From: a virus | Taxonomy: Duplodnaviria; Caudoviricetes | Direction: 5' to 3' (one strand) | DNA: 43,904 nucleotides | Virus record (IMG/VR): IMGVR_UViG_3300032024_000001 | Span: 1 to 43,904 of that record | Shown: positions 735 through 19,806 of the stretch, piece after piece | How positions within the stretch are numbered: position 1 is the stretch's first letter | Layout of the letters: every line of letters starts with the position of its first letter | Position numbers and translations under genes: made by a program | The notes under the pieces: generated by a model | What the model saw: only the letters and a program-made list of their open reading frames with translations | What the model was told of the DNA's origin: nothing | The model's database searches: none

Positions 735-1301
735 CTACTGACCTCCATTCACTACACTTAAACCAAGTCTCTTCATGTCTTCTTCTAGTTCTTTAGAAGC
801 ACCTGCTTGAACTCTTAACTCTCTTTCTACTTCCTCAGAAGAAGGTCTACCTCTTTTAGTAAGAGTAGAGTATCCTTTATCAGCAAGATACTTAGCAGCG
901 TTAAAACCTTTAGAGTCATCTAATCTAGCTGTAGCAATAAGAGCCTTTAGAGCATTAGCTTTGATCCTAATGTCCAACTCTTCTCTCCAAGCTTTGATTT
1001 CTTTCTTGATCATAGGGACTGTGTCATTAGCAAGACGTTGCCAATGATCCCAAGAGTTAAACACATCTAGAGCAAACTCATACTCAAACTCAGGGATGTG
1101 ATCATACGAAAGGTAAATCTTCTTAAGAGAAGGATATAAGATACCCTCCTTCTCAAGGTCATAATCCTTAAGAGTAAAGAAGCAAGGGTACTTCTCCTCA
1201 TCTTCTCTAAATCTCAATTCCCAAAAGAGACTCTGAGTACGATAACGACCCAAATCATCTTTTAGTTCATTGTAAGAGTACTTTTTAACATTATTTGTCA
1301 T
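735..1301 (-). CDS. terS: Putative terminase small subunit
   Basis: First late-arm gene next to the putative terminus; resembles TerS of related podoviruses (YPSLKKIYL, EYEFA...W.HW, AAKYLA, KRGRPS). Confidence 0.65.
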   Translation of the reverse strand: MTNNVKKYSYNELKDDLGRYRTQSLFWELRFREDEEKYPCFFTLKDYDLEKEGILYPSLKKIYLSYDHIPEFEYEFALDVFNSWDHWQRLANDTVPMIKKEIKAWREELDIRIKANALKALIATARLDDSKGFNAAKYLADKGYSTLTKRGRPSSEEVERELRVQAGASKELEEDMKRLGLSVVNGGQ

Positions 1302-1309
1302 ATAAGAGT

Positions 1310-1338
1310 ATTATATCACAAGTAATTAGAAAAGTCAA
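1310..1338 (-). promoter_or_regulatory. sigma70-type promoter for terS (leaderless or nearly so)
   Basis: TTGACT-17 bp-TATAAT with extended -10 TG; ATG 8 nt after the -10; no SD. Confidence 0.8.
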
Positions 1339-1500
1339 GAGATATTTACAGGTAAAGAGGGATATTTATATCTTTAATAGGAAAGATAGACTTGTGGCCG
1401 ATACATCATACATTTGATATAATGTTAAGAGATTAGAGTTTAGTGGGACTTTGTGTGTCATCTATGTCTCTTGTCGCTAAATGCTTTACATCATAAGAAT

Positions 1501-1529
1501 ATTATATCATACTTTAAAGTAAAAGTCAA
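1501..1529 (-). promoter_or_regulatory. sigma70-type leftward promoter
   Basis: TTGACT-17 bp-TATAAT with extended -10; followed after 6 nt by ATG ATG TAA. Confidence 0.75.
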
Positions 1530-1539
1530 TAGATAATCG

Positions 1540-1625
1540 CCTGAGATTCCATAATTTTTATTAGATTTTTTTAAGTTGCAGTGCAATATATGAAGTGCAT
1601 GAGTGATCCCCCCTCTATCCCCTTA
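1540..1625. other. Probable genome terminus / packaging-end region
   Basis: Non-coding gap between the divergent arms next to terS; T-tracts followed by C-runs; inferred from architecture only. Confidence 0.35.
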
Positions 1626-1717
1626 AGTAATACGTGGTTGTAGCTATGTTGTTAAGCTATTAAGCGGTGTAGTTGCTTGATTGTTAATGTTGTTGCATTA
1701 ACTTAACACGCTGTTGA

Positions 1718-1831
1718 CCACATCATCTTGTAGATCTAAGTCATTGACTTTAATAAGTATATGTTGTTGACTACTACATGTAGTGTAGTTAGTTTTAATA
1801 TACACTCTATCTTGTATGTTATATCTTGATG
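1718..1831. promoter_or_regulatory. Cluster of NrdR-box-like palindromes with an IHF-like site
   Basis: Cores CATCATCTTG (1721), GTATATGTTG (1757), CTACATGTAG (1774), CTCTATCTTG (1805), TTATATCTTG (1819) vs consensus CwAtATaTwG; 1774 and 1805 are 31 bp apart; TAAGTCATTGACT at 1737 has one mismatch to the IHF consensus. Confidence 0.55.
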
Positions 1832-1844
1832 AAAGGATTATCTT

Positions 1845-2030
1845 ATGGTTAACTTTGTTCTTCTTCTTATCTTCTTGTTTGTCTTTCTTCTATCTCTTCT
1901 TGTGATTGAGTTATGTGTGCTGTATCTAGGACGCAGACACTATCATCGTAACAAACACGATGATGTGCTTCTATCACTCGGCTATGCCTCGTTGCGAAGT
2001 AGCTGCGGCTATCTGCTGAAGAAGTATTAG
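1845..2030 (+). CDS. Possible small membrane protein
   Basis: AAGGA SD, ATG, ~25 hydrophobic residues then a basic patch; low-complexity CT-rich DNA so it may be spurious. Confidence 0.3.
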   Translation: MVNFVLLLIFLFVFLLSLLVIELCVLYLGRRHYHRNKHDDVLLSLGYASLRSSCGYLLKKY

Positions 2031-2068
2031 TAGTAGATTAACCATTGCTTTAGTCTACAAAGAGGTGT

Positions 2069-2121
2069 TGTGGATAAGTTGTGGATAGATTGTGGATAAC
2101 TTGTAATTAGGTTGTGGATTA
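2069..2121. repeat. Array of DnaA boxes at an 11-bp period
   Basis: TGTGGATAA 2069, TGTGGATAG 2080, TGTGGATAA 2091, degenerate TGTAATTAG 2102, TGTGGATTA 2113 (reverse complement of TTATCCACA). Confidence 0.8.
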
Positions 2122-2125
2122 TATA

Positions 2126-2177
2126 TTACAAATTATTACAATTCATTTACAATTTAGTAACAACTTCATTGTATAAT
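2126..2177 (+). promoter_or_regulatory. Early promoter: -10 TATAAT preceded by four phased T(T/A)ACAA repeats
   Basis: Repeats at 2126, 2136, 2147, 2158; TATAAT 2172-2177; no consensus -35 at 17 bp. Confidence 0.5.
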
Positions 2178-2184
2178 ACCTTTA

Positions 2185-2212
2185 AGCAAGCAAGCGAGAG
2201 CAAGCAAGCGAG
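2185..2212 (+). repeat. Perfect 14-bp tandem repeat in the leader of the first early gene
   Basis: AGCAAGCAAGCGAG x2. Confidence 0.85.
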
Positions 2213-2256
2213 TATCAAAACTTTATCATTATTTATTAAACTAAAAGGAAATAATC

Positions 2257-2988
2257 ATGCAAACAGCTAATAAACAACCATTAAATTTTGAAACAATCAT
2301 CACAGGCGAACAAGGTCACACCTTGCGCCATCTAGGTGCTAGGAACTTGCTTTGGCACTTAGGCGGTGCTATTGCCCGCCACCCAGTAACCAATGGCTAC
2401 GGCTTGACTAAACAAGAGATTGAGCAAGGCGGAGAAATAGCCTTCGCACCTGATGACATGCCTAAACCACAGCACGCAGACTTAGGCACATTGGTGGACG
2501 GCTTTAACTACCTAACCCAAACCCTTGAAGAGATAGCAGAGTTTGAGGACTATGATACACGCACTGGTGCACCTACTCAGCCATTCGCATGGTATCAAAT
2601 CCCATCACTTGAGACTTATGTGCGGAACTTCCAAACCTACAAGCAAGGCAGAGTAAACACAACACGCCAAGACCAAGCTAAGGCACTAGGCATCAAGACC
2701 AACATGCCAGTAAAAGACATGACATCAGAGATTGATGAACTTGTAGCTAACGCCATGGCTGAGATTAGCGGTGTTTCAGACTTCGGCACATTTGAGGACT
2801 TACAAACAGCGATTGCTGAGTTAAAGATTGACCCTCTTTACATCATTCACCAATCAGCCGTTGGTATGCTAGACCGAGCAAAGGCTAGTTTAATGGCGGG
2901 CAAGGCTGGTTATATAGACCCCGAAATTCTAGCCTTTGCACGATGGACTTGCCGACCACAGCAAGGCGCACAAGCCCCACAAGACTAA
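2257..2988 (+). CDS. Hypothetical protein, first early gene
   Basis: 243 aa ORF, SD AAGGA, own terminator; no family recognised. Confidence 0.85.
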   Translation: MQTANKQPLNFETIITGEQGHTLRHLGARNLLWHLGGAIARHPVTNGYGLTKQEIEQGGEIAFAPDDMPKPQHADLGTLVDGFNYLTQTLEEIAEFEDYDTRTGAPTQPFAWYQIPSLETYVRNFQTYKQGRVNTTRQDQAKALGIKTNMPVKDMTSEIDELVANAMAEISGVSDFGTFEDLQTAIAELKIDPLYIIHQSAVGMLDRAKASLMAGKAGYIDPEILAFARWTCRPQQGAQAPQD

Positions 2989-3010
2989 CGCACCCAGTCG
3001 GTCATCAATT

Positions 3011-3036
3011 AAGCCCCTAGAAATAGGGGTTTTTTT
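3011..3036 (+). terminator. Rho-independent terminator
   Basis: GCCCCTA-GAAA-TAGGGGT stem followed by a T-run. Confidence 0.9.
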
Positions 3037-3405
3037 GTATCATCTGCATATCAAAAAAAAATTTTCTCGTCGCTTCGCTCCTCGATGACGCTCCTTCGTC
3101 GCTAGTTAATGCGTCGACTAGTCGTCGACACTTACGCTATTGAAAAGGTTGTTATATGAATAAGCTTTTGTATATGTGTGTGAGTTCTTTAAAAAGCGTA
3201 GCTTGCGCTAGCAGAGGATCGAAAGCTAGTCGCTTTCATCTTATTAACTGCGCTTATGGTTGTTATTATATTGTAACAAGTTTAAGCTATGTGATAGTGG
3301 GTGGTTGTGTGATAAGAGGTATGAACCTTGGGAAAACCTTAAGGTCGGTCACCCCAATCTAAAGCTAGGCAAAGTAATACCAATCTAATTATAGGAGTTT
3401 AACCT

Positions 3406-3597
3406 ATGGATTTATCTAAATATTCGACTGATACATTAAATGAAATGTATTGTCACTTGTATTTTAAGAAGTTTAATAGACTTCCTAAAAGTAGTAGCAG
3501 TATAGACCGTAAGACCTTGATACAGTTAGTATCGAGTTTATCAAACCTTAGTAAGGAGAAAGTAAATGAGACCGTTTACCCACAGTCAGTTCTATAA
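3406..3597 (+). CDS. Hypothetical protein
   Basis: SD AGGAG, 63 aa, overlaps the next gene. Confidence 0.6.
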   Translation: MDLSKYSTDTLNEMYCHLYFKKFNRLPKSSSSIDRKTLIQLVSSLSNLSKEKVNETVYPQSVL

Positions 3598-16685: not shown

Positions 16686-16762
16686 GCCCTGATAGCTCAA
16701 TTGGATAGAGCAACGGATTTCTACTCCGTAGGTTGGGGGTTCGACTCCCTCTCAGGGTACCA
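16686..16762 (+). tRNA. tRNA-Arg (anticodon UCU)
   Basis: Acceptor GCCCTGA/TCAGGGT, D-loop TAGCTCAATTGGATAGAGC, anticodon arm ACGGA-TT TCT AC-TCCGT, GGTTCGA T-loop, encoded CCA. Confidence 0.95.
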
Positions 16763-17052: not shown

Positions 17053-18924
17053 ATGGAACTACCAAGTATCTATCAATCCATTATCCATCGTAGTCGATAC
17101 TCTCGCTACCTAGATAAGGAACAACGTCGTGAGTCATGGGAAGAAACAGTAGATCGTTTACTTACATACTTAAAGACACAAACTAAAGATGTAGAGGTAC
17201 CTTATGATGAATTAAGGTCTGCTATCCTCAATCTAGAAGTAATGCCCTCTATGCGTTTACTAATGTCAGCAGGTGAAGCAGTAGAGCGAGATAACATTGC
17301 AGCTTATAACTGTAGTTACCTAGCAGTCAACAACAAACGTGCATTTAGTGAAGCTCTTTACATTCTTATGAATGGTACTGGTGTAGGCTTTAGCTGTGAG
17401 CGTCAAGAAGTTAGCAAATTACCAGCTATTCCTGAGAAACTACGTGAGGTAGACGATGTCATATTTGTGCAAGACAGCAAGCTTGGATGGGCAAAAGCCT
17501 TCAAAAAACTTCTCTCTTCGCTCTGGGAGGGAGATATCCCTAAAGTTGATTACTCAAAGGTTCGACCAGCTGGAGCAAGACTTAAAGTATTTGGTGGAAG
17601 AGCATCAGGACCTGAGCCTCTTAAACGACTCTTTGACTTCACGATTAAGTCATTTAAAGAAGCTAGTGGACGAAAACTCACTAGTATTGAAGTACACGAC
17701 ATAATGTGTATGGTAGGTGAGATTGTTGTGGTAGGTGGGGTACGTCGCAGTGCTCTAATCTCCCTCTCTAATCTTACAGATCGTCGTATGCGTGAAGCTA
17801 AAATGGGAGCATGGTATAATGATAATCCACACCGAGGACTTGCTAACAACTCAGTTGCCTACACAGAACGACCAGATAGTGAGACTTTCATGGAAGAATG
17901 GTTATCTTTGGTTAAATCAAAGTCAGGTGAACGAGGAATATTTAATCGTATTGCTGCTCAAACTCAAGCTGCTAAATGGGGACGACGTTCTAAAGATCAC
18001 AGCTACGGAACCAATCCATGCTCAGAGATTATCCTACGTGATAAACAGTTCTGCAATCTTACGGAAGTGGTTGTACGGAACGGGGACACACTTGAATCTC
18101 TCGAACGTAAAGTTAAGTTAGCCTCTATCTTAGGTACTGTTCAATCTACTCTTAATAAGTTTAACTTCTTGAGTGAAGAGTGGGTAGCTAATACTTCAGA
18201 AGAGCGTTTACTTGGTGTAAGCTTGACAGGTATTATGGATTGTGAGTATACTTCTGATCCATTACCTTCTGCTTTAGTATATTTAAGAGATGTTGCTCGG
18301 AGAACTAATGAAGAACTTGCTGAAAGACTTGGTATTCCTGCTTCTGCTTCTATCACTTGTGTTAAGCCTTCAGGTACAGTCTCCCAGTTGGTGGATAGTG
18401 CTAGTGGCATTCATGCTCGGCACAACGATTACTATTTACGACGTATTCGTATGGATAAGAAAGATCCAATCTACGAGTATCTAAAAAGTAAAGGTGTTCC
18501 AGTAGAAGATGAAGCATTTAGACCTGATTCAACTGCTGTATTTAGTTTCCCAATGAAAGCTCCAGTAGGTGCTATTACTCGTGATTCTAAGTCAGCTATT
18601 GAACAGTTAGAGTTATGGTTAATCTATCAGCGTCATTGGTGTGAACACAAACCCTCAGTCACTATCTCAGTTAAAGATGAGGAGTGGGTTGAAGTAGGTG
18701 CTTGGGTTTGGAAATACTTTGATGAAGTGAGTGGTGTATCTTTCTTACCACACTCAAACCATACTTATGTACAGGCTCCTTACGAAGATATCGATGAAGA
18801 GACTTACAATAAGTTATTAAGCGAAATGCCAACAGATATTGATTGGAGTGATTTTATAGAACTCGATGATAATACTGAAGGTGCTCAACAATTAGCATGT
18901 AGTTCAGGATATTGCGAAGTATAA
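17053..18924 (+). CDS. nrdJ: Class II (adenosylcobalamin-dependent) ribonucleotide reductase
   Basis: MPSMR, YNC, GTGVGF, GGVRRSA, TNPCSEI, VKPSGT, C-terminal CSSGYC; no beta-subunit gene in the window. Confidence 0.92.
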   Translation: MELPSIYQSIIHRSRYSRYLDKEQRRESWEETVDRLLTYLKTQTKDVEVPYDELRSAILNLEVMPSMRLLMSAGEAVERDNIAAYNCSYLAVNNKRAFSEALYILMNGTGVGFSCERQEVSKLPAIPEKLREVDDVIFVQDSKLGWAKAFKKLLSSLWEGDIPKVDYSKVRPAGARLKVFGGRASGPEPLKRLFDFTIKSFKEASGRKLTSIEVHDIMCMVGEIVVVGGVRRSALISLSNLTDRRMREAKMGAWYNDNPHRGLANNSVAYTERPDSETFMEEWLSLVKSKSGERGIFNRIAAQTQAAKWGRRSKDHSYGTNPCSEIILRDKQFCNLTEVVVRNGDTLESLERKVKLASILGTVQSTLNKFNFLSEEWVANTSEERLLGVSLTGIMDCEYTSDPLPSALVYLRDVARRTNEELAERLGIPASASITCVKPSGTVSQLVDSASGIHARHNDYYLRRIRMDKKDPIYEYLKSKGVPVEDEAFRPDSTAVFSFPMKAPVGAITRDSKSAIEQLELWLIYQRHWCEHKPSVTISVKDEEWVEVGAWVWKYFDEVSGVSFLPHSNHTYVQAPYEDIDEETYNKLLSEMPTDIDWSDFIELDDNTEGAQQLACSSGYCEV

Positions 18925-18931
18925 GTAATAC

Positions 18932-18960
18932 TTGACAAGCTCTCACAAATATGTTATAAT
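18932..18960 (+). promoter_or_regulatory. Consensus sigma70 promoter in front of the endonuclease gene
   Basis: TTGACA-17 bp-TATAAT with extended -10. Confidence 0.85.
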
Positions 18961-18981
18961 ATGTGAATAAGGAGTAATATT

Positions 18982-19734: not shown

Positions 19735-19806
19735 ATGTGGACATCACCTCAAGCAACAGAAATGCGCTTTGGCTTTGAAGTTACAATGTATGTAATGAAT
19801 AAATAG
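19735..19806 (+). CDS. pqqA: Pyrroloquinoline quinone precursor peptide PqqA (not in ORF track)
   Basis: SD TAAGGAG; MWTSPQATEMRFGFEVTMYVMNK with the E-x-x-x-Y core (GFEVTMY). Confidence 0.95.
   Translation: MWTSPQATEMRFGFEVTMYVMNK

Follow-up and report, generated by a model that had tools for sequence, protein, structure and literature searches.

NrdR is treated as a repressor specific to ribonucleotide reductase (RNR) genes, and the architecture of its operators is well described: two boxes lie 31-32 bp apart (PMC2892513), a distance of three helical turns (PMC9110341), and as a rule they are placed over promoters (PMC2892513, PMC9110341). As described in the latter report, NrdR binds such pairs only when carrying dATP plus ATP or ADP, blocking the promoter, and bends the DNA strongly, by about 180 degrees (PMC9110341). 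The bacterial RNR operons covered by these two reports (nrdAB, nrdDG, nrdHIEF and nrdRJ) carry 16-bp palindromes spaced by 31 bp, the same elements that we find in the phage locus described here. DnaA binds in vivo to pairs of boxes 2-3 bp apart, and its described E. coli targets include sites upstream of nrdA and nrdD, genes that NrdR likewise controls; in the nrdA, nrdD, dnaA and mioC promoters, as here, a sigma-70 -10 hexamer is preceded by double boxes with 2 bp between them (PMC11317965). In the minimal datA locus of E. coli, an IHF site lies between DnaA boxes 2 and 3, within 183 bp (PMC5742627).

Sites for host regulators in phage control regions are a known kind of element. The report of cyanophage genes under host PhoBR control (PMC10976474) provides a precedent for host control of phage promoters, the T5-like phages have clustered DnaA boxes near the left end together with replication genes of their own (bioRxiv 10.1101/866236), and DnaA boxes have been noted in one predicted phage origin (PMC11512268). 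NrdR as the sensor is unusual; a literature search, mostly of open papers, returned none on phage NrdR operators or on phage DNA that titrates DnaA. DnaA control of the lambda pR promoter was reportedly described by Glinkowska in 2003.

The present locus combines a pair of NrdR boxes with an array of DnaA boxes. In contrast to the bacterial operators, the NrdR pair fronts two early genes of a lytic phage that do not encode RNR, and the phage RNR gene is 15 kb away, behind a terminator-like site and with no pair of its own; on both counts the locus falls outside the canonical NrdR regulon. In T5 there are eight DnaA boxes, in pairs 3 bp apart, set in inverted repeats within the terminal repeat (bioRxiv 10.1101/866236), whereas the four boxes here share one strand, with 2 bp between neighbours in three of them, lie outside the predicted repeat, abut a promoter candidate and are absent from most relatives. 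The combination of DnaA and NrdR is that of the host nrd promoters, although here each input has its own candidate promoter, the two being separated by about 250 bp and a gene. As in the cyanophages, the genes of a lytic phage appear to be wired to a host sensor (PMC10976474), but the sensor is another one, and the tandem repeats beside the DnaA array failed a Pho-box test for betaproteobacteria.

The window, by which we mean the whole stretch of DNA analysed, is a 43,904-base virus record of a freshwater phage. Its primase, helicase, polymerase and class II RNR are all annotated on the plus strand, in agreement with the first-pass annotation, which had credited the phage with these four functions, and its structural genes are on the minus strand. 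The large terminase is 77-78% identical to those of the Methylophilales phages MEP401 and MEP402 (Zobellviridae). A tail-fibre frame runs stop-free across both ends of the window, and because of this open frame we read the record as a permuted complete genome; it is that of a Zobellviridae-type podovirus. GC and AT skew track gene direction and mark no origin. GenBank phages contained no DNA similar to positions 1300-3100, and a comparison of positions 1200-3500 with Rfam returned no structured RNA at E≤0.1.

The phage encodes a PqqA peptide at 19735-19806, and methylotroph-family genomes matching the window DNA numbered 150 of 151, with all of the matches listed being to pqqA; we therefore infer that the host is likely to be a Methylophilaceae-like bacterium. 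NrdR was found in 59 of 61 Burkholderiales genomes searched, a tally that includes the unpublished genome G031. Two streamlined methylotroph genomes gave one RNR match each, a B12-dependent NrdJ without the ATP-cone, and in both the gene is preceded by one NrdR pair with 31-bp spacing. The phage RNR, encoded at 17053, is likewise without an ATP-cone.

The region studied separates the last leftward late gene (735-1301, minus strand) from the rightward early arm. This end-proximal gene is conserved (phrog_8035, function not known) and marks the context of a genome end, its product being 36% identical to that of the gene beside the mapped terminal repeat of phage ICBM1. A motif followed by a C-run (1554-1625, plus strand) is conserved across the family, and the ICBM1 repeat begins 26 nt past this motif, so that the left end of the packaged genome is predicted near 1580. 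The terminal repeat is predicted to run to about 1740-1755; the direct terminal repeats reported for cobaviruses, which belong to the Zobellviridae, are 159-173 bp long (PMC6775973). The window shares with the cobaviruses a two-arm genome, a homologous end gene, the pre-repeat motif and a C-rich start, and in these features it fits the Zobellviridae terminal cassette; the motif is present in ICBM1 and was not found in ICBM2 at 2 mismatches. Homology to a mapped repeat in this way supports the earlier placement of the region at the genome end. A near-consensus sigma-70 late promoter (1501-1529, minus strand; 11/12 matches; repeat family D5), with a second copy at 1310-1338, would, given a terminus near 1580, fall at the packaged genome's right end.

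Close to the predicted end of the repeat is an IHF-type site with 1 mismatch (1737-1749, minus strand). By itself this site is at chance level, as the window contains 113 sites with at most one mismatch, and the argument for it comes from its position, which is conserved in the family. We compared 37 non-redundant left ends that have the anchor, the C-run and 400 nt of sequence. In the zone 115-215 nt from the anchor, the same strand carries an exact IHF consensus in 17 of the 37, and a site with at most one mismatch in 32; an equal zone further along gave 1/37 and the opposite strand 4/37. The 1737 site is thus part of a family-wide terminal cassette, although the terminal repeats of ICBM1 and ICBM2 contain no exact IHF consensus. 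The IHF-like site proposed in the first pass therefore survives by its position and not by its score, and the proposed order of motifs does not hold, since the site lies between a first NrdR-like palindrome and the NrdR pair instead of past all of the NrdR-like boxes. A further exact IHF consensus at 2213 is outside the DnaA array and is not conserved in relatives.

The two NrdR boxes are at 1771-1786 (16.9 bits, rank 1 of 43,889) and 1802-1817 (12.3 bits, rank 5 of 43,889), 31 bp apart, a spacing also found in two more distant relatives (L144 and L152). The first probes were the consensus motifs of DnaA, IHF, NrdR and sigma-70; for the scores given here the NrdR profile was built solely from 11 distinct partner boxes of bacterial RNR promoters. 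These came from a scan of GTDB genomes for box 1 followed, 31 bp on, by the first three bases of its partner, which returned 21 bacterial loci, 14 of them beside nrdA, nrdD, nrdE/I, nrdJ or nrdR; three profile positions (CAC) are consequently fixed by the query and shared with the phage, a small circularity. The 16-mer of box 1 is letter-identical in four betaproteobacterial nrdA promoters. The pair scores 29.1 bits, against 12.8 for the next-best pair in the genome and 19.5-29.5 for four Burkholderiales RNR promoters, and this score was reached in none of 2000 intergenic and none of 200 whole-window shuffles. The 1771/1802 pair reads as a textbook NrdR operator, which sharpens the earlier proposal of NrdR-box-like palindromes into a tandem pair.

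The earlier observation that site sequences for the host proteins NrdR and DnaA lie far from any RNR gene was also correct, the RNR gene being at 17053. Control of this gene by NrdR was considered and rejected: there is no pair nearby and the only box, of 12.5 bits, is inside the gene at 17694. Nor does the 1771/1802 pair simply control it, because a site resembling an intrinsic terminator, with a hairpin and T run (3011-3040, plus strand), closes the first transcription unit. A third NrdR-like palindrome at 1718-1733 (12.1 bits, rank 6) overlaps a DnaA-like 9-mer with 2 mismatches at 1714; it keeps its 12.1 bits in one close relative (L140), scores 1.1 bits in L141, L003 and L142, and is therefore lost from three of four close relatives.

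Both the NrdR and the DnaA module lie on or just upstream of candidate early promoters, a placement that the first pass did not take into account. The first of these (1767-1795, plus strand) pairs a -35 hexamer at 1767-1772, which NrdR box 1 overlaps, with a weak -10 at 1790-1795; box 1 falls in the spacer, and the methylotroph nrdJ promoters place it similarly. When the boxes were held fixed and the remaining sequence shuffled, the overlap with a promoter was not above chance in the window (p 0.30) or in five relatives (p 0.34-0.85). This is a weak test, which 4 of 14 real bacterial NrdR operators pass; of 96 NrdR pairs in viral contigs, 16 pass at p≤0.05 for overlap with a sigma-70 promoter, where about 5 would be expected, a rate that we liken to that of the real operators. 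In all four close relatives (L001-L004), box 2 is followed, 2 bp on, by a perfect extended -10, which in the window is degraded (1820-1825) while both boxes are retained. The independent NrdR pair of L152 (60% protein identity) stops 3 bp short of a perfect -10, and that of L144 (68% protein identity) lies inside the predicted terminal repeat, about 600 bp from the first ORF.

Downstream of box 2 is the first early gene (1845-2030, plus strand), which encodes a 61-aa protein with a hydrophobic N-terminus and is preceded by a ribosome-binding site (1831-1837). A ribosome-binding site and the conserved gene follow box 2 in the window and in L002-L004, and homologues are present in all eight related loci examined (L218-L222, L224, L225 and L227); in the window, a deletion has fused two ORFs that are adjacent in L003 and L004. 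The description of the region as mostly non-coding was thus partly wrong.

The DnaA-box array (2069-2121, minus strand) has boxes at 2069, 2080, 2091 and 2113, with 0, 1, 0 and 1 mismatches respectively, and includes the only two perfect DnaA boxes in the window. Clusters in shuffled sequence never exceeded two boxes (0/300 whole-window and 0/2000 intergenic shuffles). Four of the five boxes that had been proposed at an 11-bp period are therefore real, and the fifth slot, at 2102, is degenerate with 4 mismatches; in three relatives (L003, L004 and L219) there are five boxes and the helical phase is retained. The last box, the repeats that follow it and a rightward -10 hexamer stay fixed with respect to each other, while the boxes upstream have moved by 22, 23 and 42 bp, close to whole helical turns. 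A mismatch in the last box is conserved and creates a perfect leftward -10 hexamer (2118-2123, minus strand), invariant in three aligned variants, which may belong to an antisense promoter. An oriC-like origin would have two opposed box arrays beside an unwinding element; two opposed, degenerate DnaA arrays were seen in a distant relative, L185. TAG triplets at 2028-2036 were considered as DnaA-trios and were rejected; they are about 32 bp from the first box, and stacked stop codons explain them.

Between the array and the rightward -10 are four T(T/A)ACA direct repeats (2126-2162, plus strand), at 2126, 2136, 2147 and 2158, which cover the rightward -35 zone. The first pass had noted these phased repeats, and their spacing of 10, 11 and 11 was reproduced in 0/3000 shuffles, with the caveat that the pattern was chosen after being seen. 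In relatives the TTACA cores are kept and the spacers vary. The perfect -10 hexamer (2172-2177, plus strand) has no recognisable -35, is invariant in aligned relatives, and lies upstream of the second early gene (2257-2988, plus strand; 243 aa, mostly helical; 40 homologues). As low-affinity DnaA sites the repeats are weak candidates, scoring poorly as DnaA boxes: measured against a DnaA box, the TTACA 9-mers show 3-5 mismatches, with variation at positions 1-4 of the box, and 0/84 viral DnaA arrays have such tandem repeats alongside.

From family knowledge and genomic contexts, the repeats are likely to be sites for a regulator of the OmpR/PhoB family. Triple TTACA repeats outnumber reversed-pattern controls in the Burkholderiales (29 matches against 7 in 401 genomes) and more strongly among methylotroph-family genomes (29 against 6 in 81). 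Of the Burkholderiales loci, 4 of 21 are at phosphate genes; of those from the methylotroph family, 4 of 24 adjoin a gene for a CpxR-like regulator, three with a confirmed Spy/CpxP-like partner. PhoB, suggested by the phosphate loci, was rejected on two tests. With a Pho-box profile derived de novo from 55 betaproteobacterial pstS promoters (of 59 loci), the phage repeats score 4.7-4.8 bits (ranks 56-61 of 87,776), which 1527 of 2000 shuffles matched, against 9.9 or more for 52 of the 55 pstS sites and 10.0 for the L003 variant of the repeats; the gap to the -10 is 11 nt in 44 of 45 pstS cases and 12 nt for the leftward -10 of the phage. CpxR is a lead only. Profiles built on 29 promoters of spy/cpxP type, taken from 30 loci in the likely host family, did not place the phage above shuffles in three tests (487/1500, 439/2000 and 1722/2000); these profiles transfer poorly, as four other cpx loci also score low. 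The 10+11 register of the phage occurs in 0/29 spy/cpxP-type promoters, and the two loci that share this register and its 46-bp distance to a -10-like hexamer (L574 and L576) were found using the pattern itself. Across viral sequences the distance from TTACA to the -10 has no preferred value (9 nt in 5/47; 14 nt in 5/47).

Conservation of these elements was assessed in 48 upstream regions: that of the window plus those of 47 loci, chosen from 79 by setting aside duplicates and regions shorter than 600 nt. An NrdR pair beyond all 100 shuffles is present in 7 of the 48: the window, its four close relatives, L144 and L152. Their spacing is exactly 31 bp throughout, and the offset differs in each of the three lineages (+80 in L144, +214-217 in the window group and +257 in L152). 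The close relatives are near-identical over the boxes and the linker, and their conservation therefore says little on selection. A metagenome scan added 11 loci, and the four with enough upstream DNA held neither a strong pair nor an array; the MEP401, MEP402 and MW202697 genomes likewise had no strong pair (best in these loci and genomes ≤13.7 bits) and are without the DnaA module as well. A pattern search for the IHF site plus the NrdR pair matched only in the four close relatives. DnaA arrays were found in 5 of 33 left ends. Two of these (L207 and L209) are 36% distant and have the array on the opposite strand, adjoining the IHF site; nearby, no gene starting rightward was seen. Motifs and spacing are thus kept in close relatives and in some lineages, with a patchy distribution overall, and in the tests against shuffled controls the NrdR pair and the DnaA cluster both exceeded every shuffle.

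The modules are exchanged independently. L219 has the DnaA/TTACA block on another left end with no NrdR pair, indicating that the block moves with the downstream gene and not with the terminus; L001 keeps the IHF site and NrdR pair and diverges just past box 2; L220-L227 have neither module, and no DnaA array accompanies the gene 2257 homologues of eight loci. Contigs from environmental DNA runs revealed variants but no termini. Breakpoints lie at 1823, beyond which L001 and contigs of runs X3 and X9 diverge after retaining NrdR box 2, and at 2087. On this pattern, the region is a mosaic of four parts: the terminal cassette, the NrdR module, the 61-aa gene and the promoter module with DnaA boxes and repeats.

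Similar elements recur in viral collections, with raw counts of about 240 stretches that have three DnaA boxes at an 11-bp period and about 350 that have an NrdR pair. Among the first 80 of the roughly 240, 62 of 63 non-redundant DnaA arrays are intergenic, and a terminase subunit is the nearest ORF for 10 of 60 arrays (89 of 105 ORFs scanned). By raw count, a gene starts within 400 bp downstream of 52 of 66 NrdR pairs. The genes downstream of the pairs (62 of 73 scanned) encode RNR in 2 of 62 cases, and a terminase, portal or scaffold protein in 12. Only 1 of 66 viral pairs has at least three DnaA boxes within 500 bp. The window is thus a clean, small case of a widely recurring pattern and not a unique system.

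We tentatively favour, at slightly less than even odds, the reading in which the NrdR and DnaA sites are host-sensor operators on the first early promoters, gating or timing their transcription. In the first module, the NrdR pair would sit over the promoter candidates of the 61-aa gene. Since binding to such pairs requires NrdR loaded with dATP plus ATP or ADP, a non-replicating host would keep this promoter off and a host that is making DNA would have it on, and it may be shut again once the phage RNR, being without an ATP-cone, raises dATP. In the second module, the phased DnaA array and the four TTACA repeats precede a -10 without a -35 that would drive the unit from gene 2257 to 3011, and DnaA together with an OmpR/PhoB-family regulator may set its activity. 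Late in infection, NrdR and DnaA would then also be titrated, as a side effect of the operators. In favour of operators are the match to bacterial NrdR operators, the -10 just past the second box in the close relatives and in L152, the rate of promoter overlap among viral pairs, the movement of the DnaA block with its downstream gene, and the fixed register of the promoter-proximal DnaA box, repeats and -10. Several observations count against operators: the chance-level promoter overlap in the window, the loss of the perfect -10 after box 2 while the boxes are kept, the sites without an evident promoter in L144, L207 and L209, the absence of the modules from 41 of 48 (NrdR) and 28 of 33 (DnaA) regions, and the rarity with which NrdR pair and DnaA array occur together. 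If operators they are, such phages could sense or perturb both of the host systems through which dNTP supply and replication are coupled, which bears on the timing of infection by phages of slow-growing, streamlined bacteria and on early-gene shut-off in T7-like phages without an RNA polymerase of their own.

A sink, plausible once the phage DNA is amplified, is compatible with operators, and both could be true. Here each module would act separately, as tens of replicating phage genomes titrate NrdR, derepressing the host RNR, and DnaA, stalling host initiation. We hold this to be rather unlikely as the main function, and likewise the wider notion that bare phage DNA is the effector, first reading the replication state of the host and later draining NrdR and DnaA with no protein made. 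Extra copies of datA and clusters of DnaA boxes are reported to impair initiation (PMC5742627). In the streamlined methylotrophs NrdR is perhaps the main overall brake on RNR, and one easily outnumbered, since the sole RNR matched is an NrdJ without an ATP-cone behind one pair. The sites that persist without an evident promoter, or after loss of the -10 in the window, also suit a sink, as do the breadth of both elements in viral stretches, the intergenic placement of the arrays and the scarcity of RNR genes downstream of the pairs. On the other side, each genome carries a single NrdR pair and four DnaA boxes, which would have no effect before replication, the phage encodes its own RNR, the geometry of datA is lacking, and the promoter-proximal box, repeats and -10 are held in a fixed register that a sink does not need. 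The position of the sites cannot separate operator from sink, because the end region is the largest gene-free space. Were a sink the answer, NrdR pairs and DnaA arrays repeatedly gained at genome ends would unlock the host's only RNR and stop initiation.

It is improbable that the sites as a set have a structural role, with bound IHF, NrdR and DnaA shaping or tethering the terminus while DNA enters, the terminal repeat is duplicated, DNA is packaged or an origin opens; the IHF site, taken by itself, is likely to have such a role. The family-wide IHF site at a fixed zone of the terminal cassette is consistent with it, as are the T5-like phages that carry paired DnaA boxes in the terminal repeat (bioRxiv 10.1101/866236), the turn of about 180 degrees that NrdR imposes on DNA (PMC9110341), and the terminase, portal and scaffold genes beside viral arrays and pairs. 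The most A+T-rich part of positions 1500-2300, at 88% in 2121-2160, abuts the DnaA array. The unwinding element of oriC has a defined orientation relative to its DnaA boxes, and the A+T-rich stretch is on the opposite side; moreover, absence from most relatives fits an essential role poorly, and the ICBM1 and ICBM2 repeats are without the exact IHF consensus, their ends also being without a DnaA array.

That the sites are functionless relics, fragments of host or other-phage promoters caught in recombination-prone non-coding DNA, we regard as very improbable: the patchy distribution, the two breakpoints and the degraded -10 of the window would fit, but the exact NrdR spacing at three offsets in three lineages, the DnaA arrays in lineages 36% apart, the changes of box number with phase kept, and the TTACA cores retained between variable spacers argue against it. 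The single datA-like array proposed in the first pass is rejected. The same-orientation DnaA boxes in non-coding DNA do resemble datA, and extra copies could titrate DnaA, but the IHF site is part of the terminus, 320 bp from the nearest strong DnaA box and not between boxes, the 61-aa gene lies in the middle, and the NrdR and DnaA modules occur apart.

The product of gene 2257 belongs to no known family, with DUF6633 as an Atlas lead at 0.90 only, and a whole-chain model (pLDDT 76) had no Foldseek match at E≤0.001, its best VIA hit having a Z of 5.5. Two RNA runs from one study cover only parts of diverged relatives of this gene.

Arrays of DnaA boxes were also found in distant relatives of the phage. 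Positioned relative to the conserved anchor, the arrays of L207 (+77..+147) and L209 (+158..+300) both lie on the opposite strand and adjoin the IHF site, and the L185 locus carries two opposed, degenerate arrays at +380..+490. In the L209 array, perfect DnaA boxes pass gradually into TTAACA repeats. Three small viral contigs (L030, L059 and L074) carry DnaA-box triplets upstream of replication-initiator genes (phrog_942); these triplets are probably true DnaA-assisted origins, and most likely form a class distinct from the genome-end arrays.

The non-coding early region of the window also contains short hairpin-forming and CAAG/CGCT-rich repeats (1983-2010, 2187-2212 and 3060-3135), which are found again in the same non-coding early zones of many relatives. 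The first large early gene, gene 2257 (2257-2988), has 40 homologues, none of them named, and its predicted structure is a confident helical model for which a known fold was not found; we consider its product a candidate host-takeover protein. Upstream of the homologue of this gene, the related viral loci L219-L227 display a second type of left end, with tandem ATGTAGT-like repeats following a C-run. The early promoters of this type differ, and the early genes joined to them are the same.

In the viral contigs L287-L366, the gene downstream of a NrdR pair is often not RNR but one for a terminase, portal, scaffold, anti-repressor, excisionase or integrase. Among the bacterial loci, an Accumulibacter contig (L228) has a good NrdR pair at 411-444, where a cGAS/DncV-like nucleotidyltransferase gene begins; through this pair dNTP sensing may be coupled to a defence gene, although the pair may instead serve a gene beyond the contig end. 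At four further bacterial loci with good-looking pairs (L234, L237, L243 and L245), RNR was not found among the neighbouring ORFs scanned, where the neighbours were a SprT-like gene, a Peribacteria ORF without a family and a cyanobacterial aldehyde dehydrogenase family gene.

The strongest pointer to the host of the window phage is a gene for PqqA, the PQQ precursor peptide, of 23 amino acids (19735-19806, + strand; Pfam E-value 7.5e-10, with a score exceeding the NCBIfam cut-off), at which a ribosome-binding site is present. The Methylophilales phages MEP401 and MEP402 also encode a similar PqqA-like peptide, missing from their annotation, and the gene is possibly an auxiliary gene serving methylotroph hosts. 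Elsewhere in the window, a tRNA-Arg (TCT) gene (16686-16762, + strand) lies upstream of the RNR region. Directly 3' of the RNR gene, a consensus sigma-70 promoter (18932-18960, + strand) is followed immediately by a single DnaA consensus box (18962-18970, - strand), and the two precede an HNH/endonuclease VII gene.
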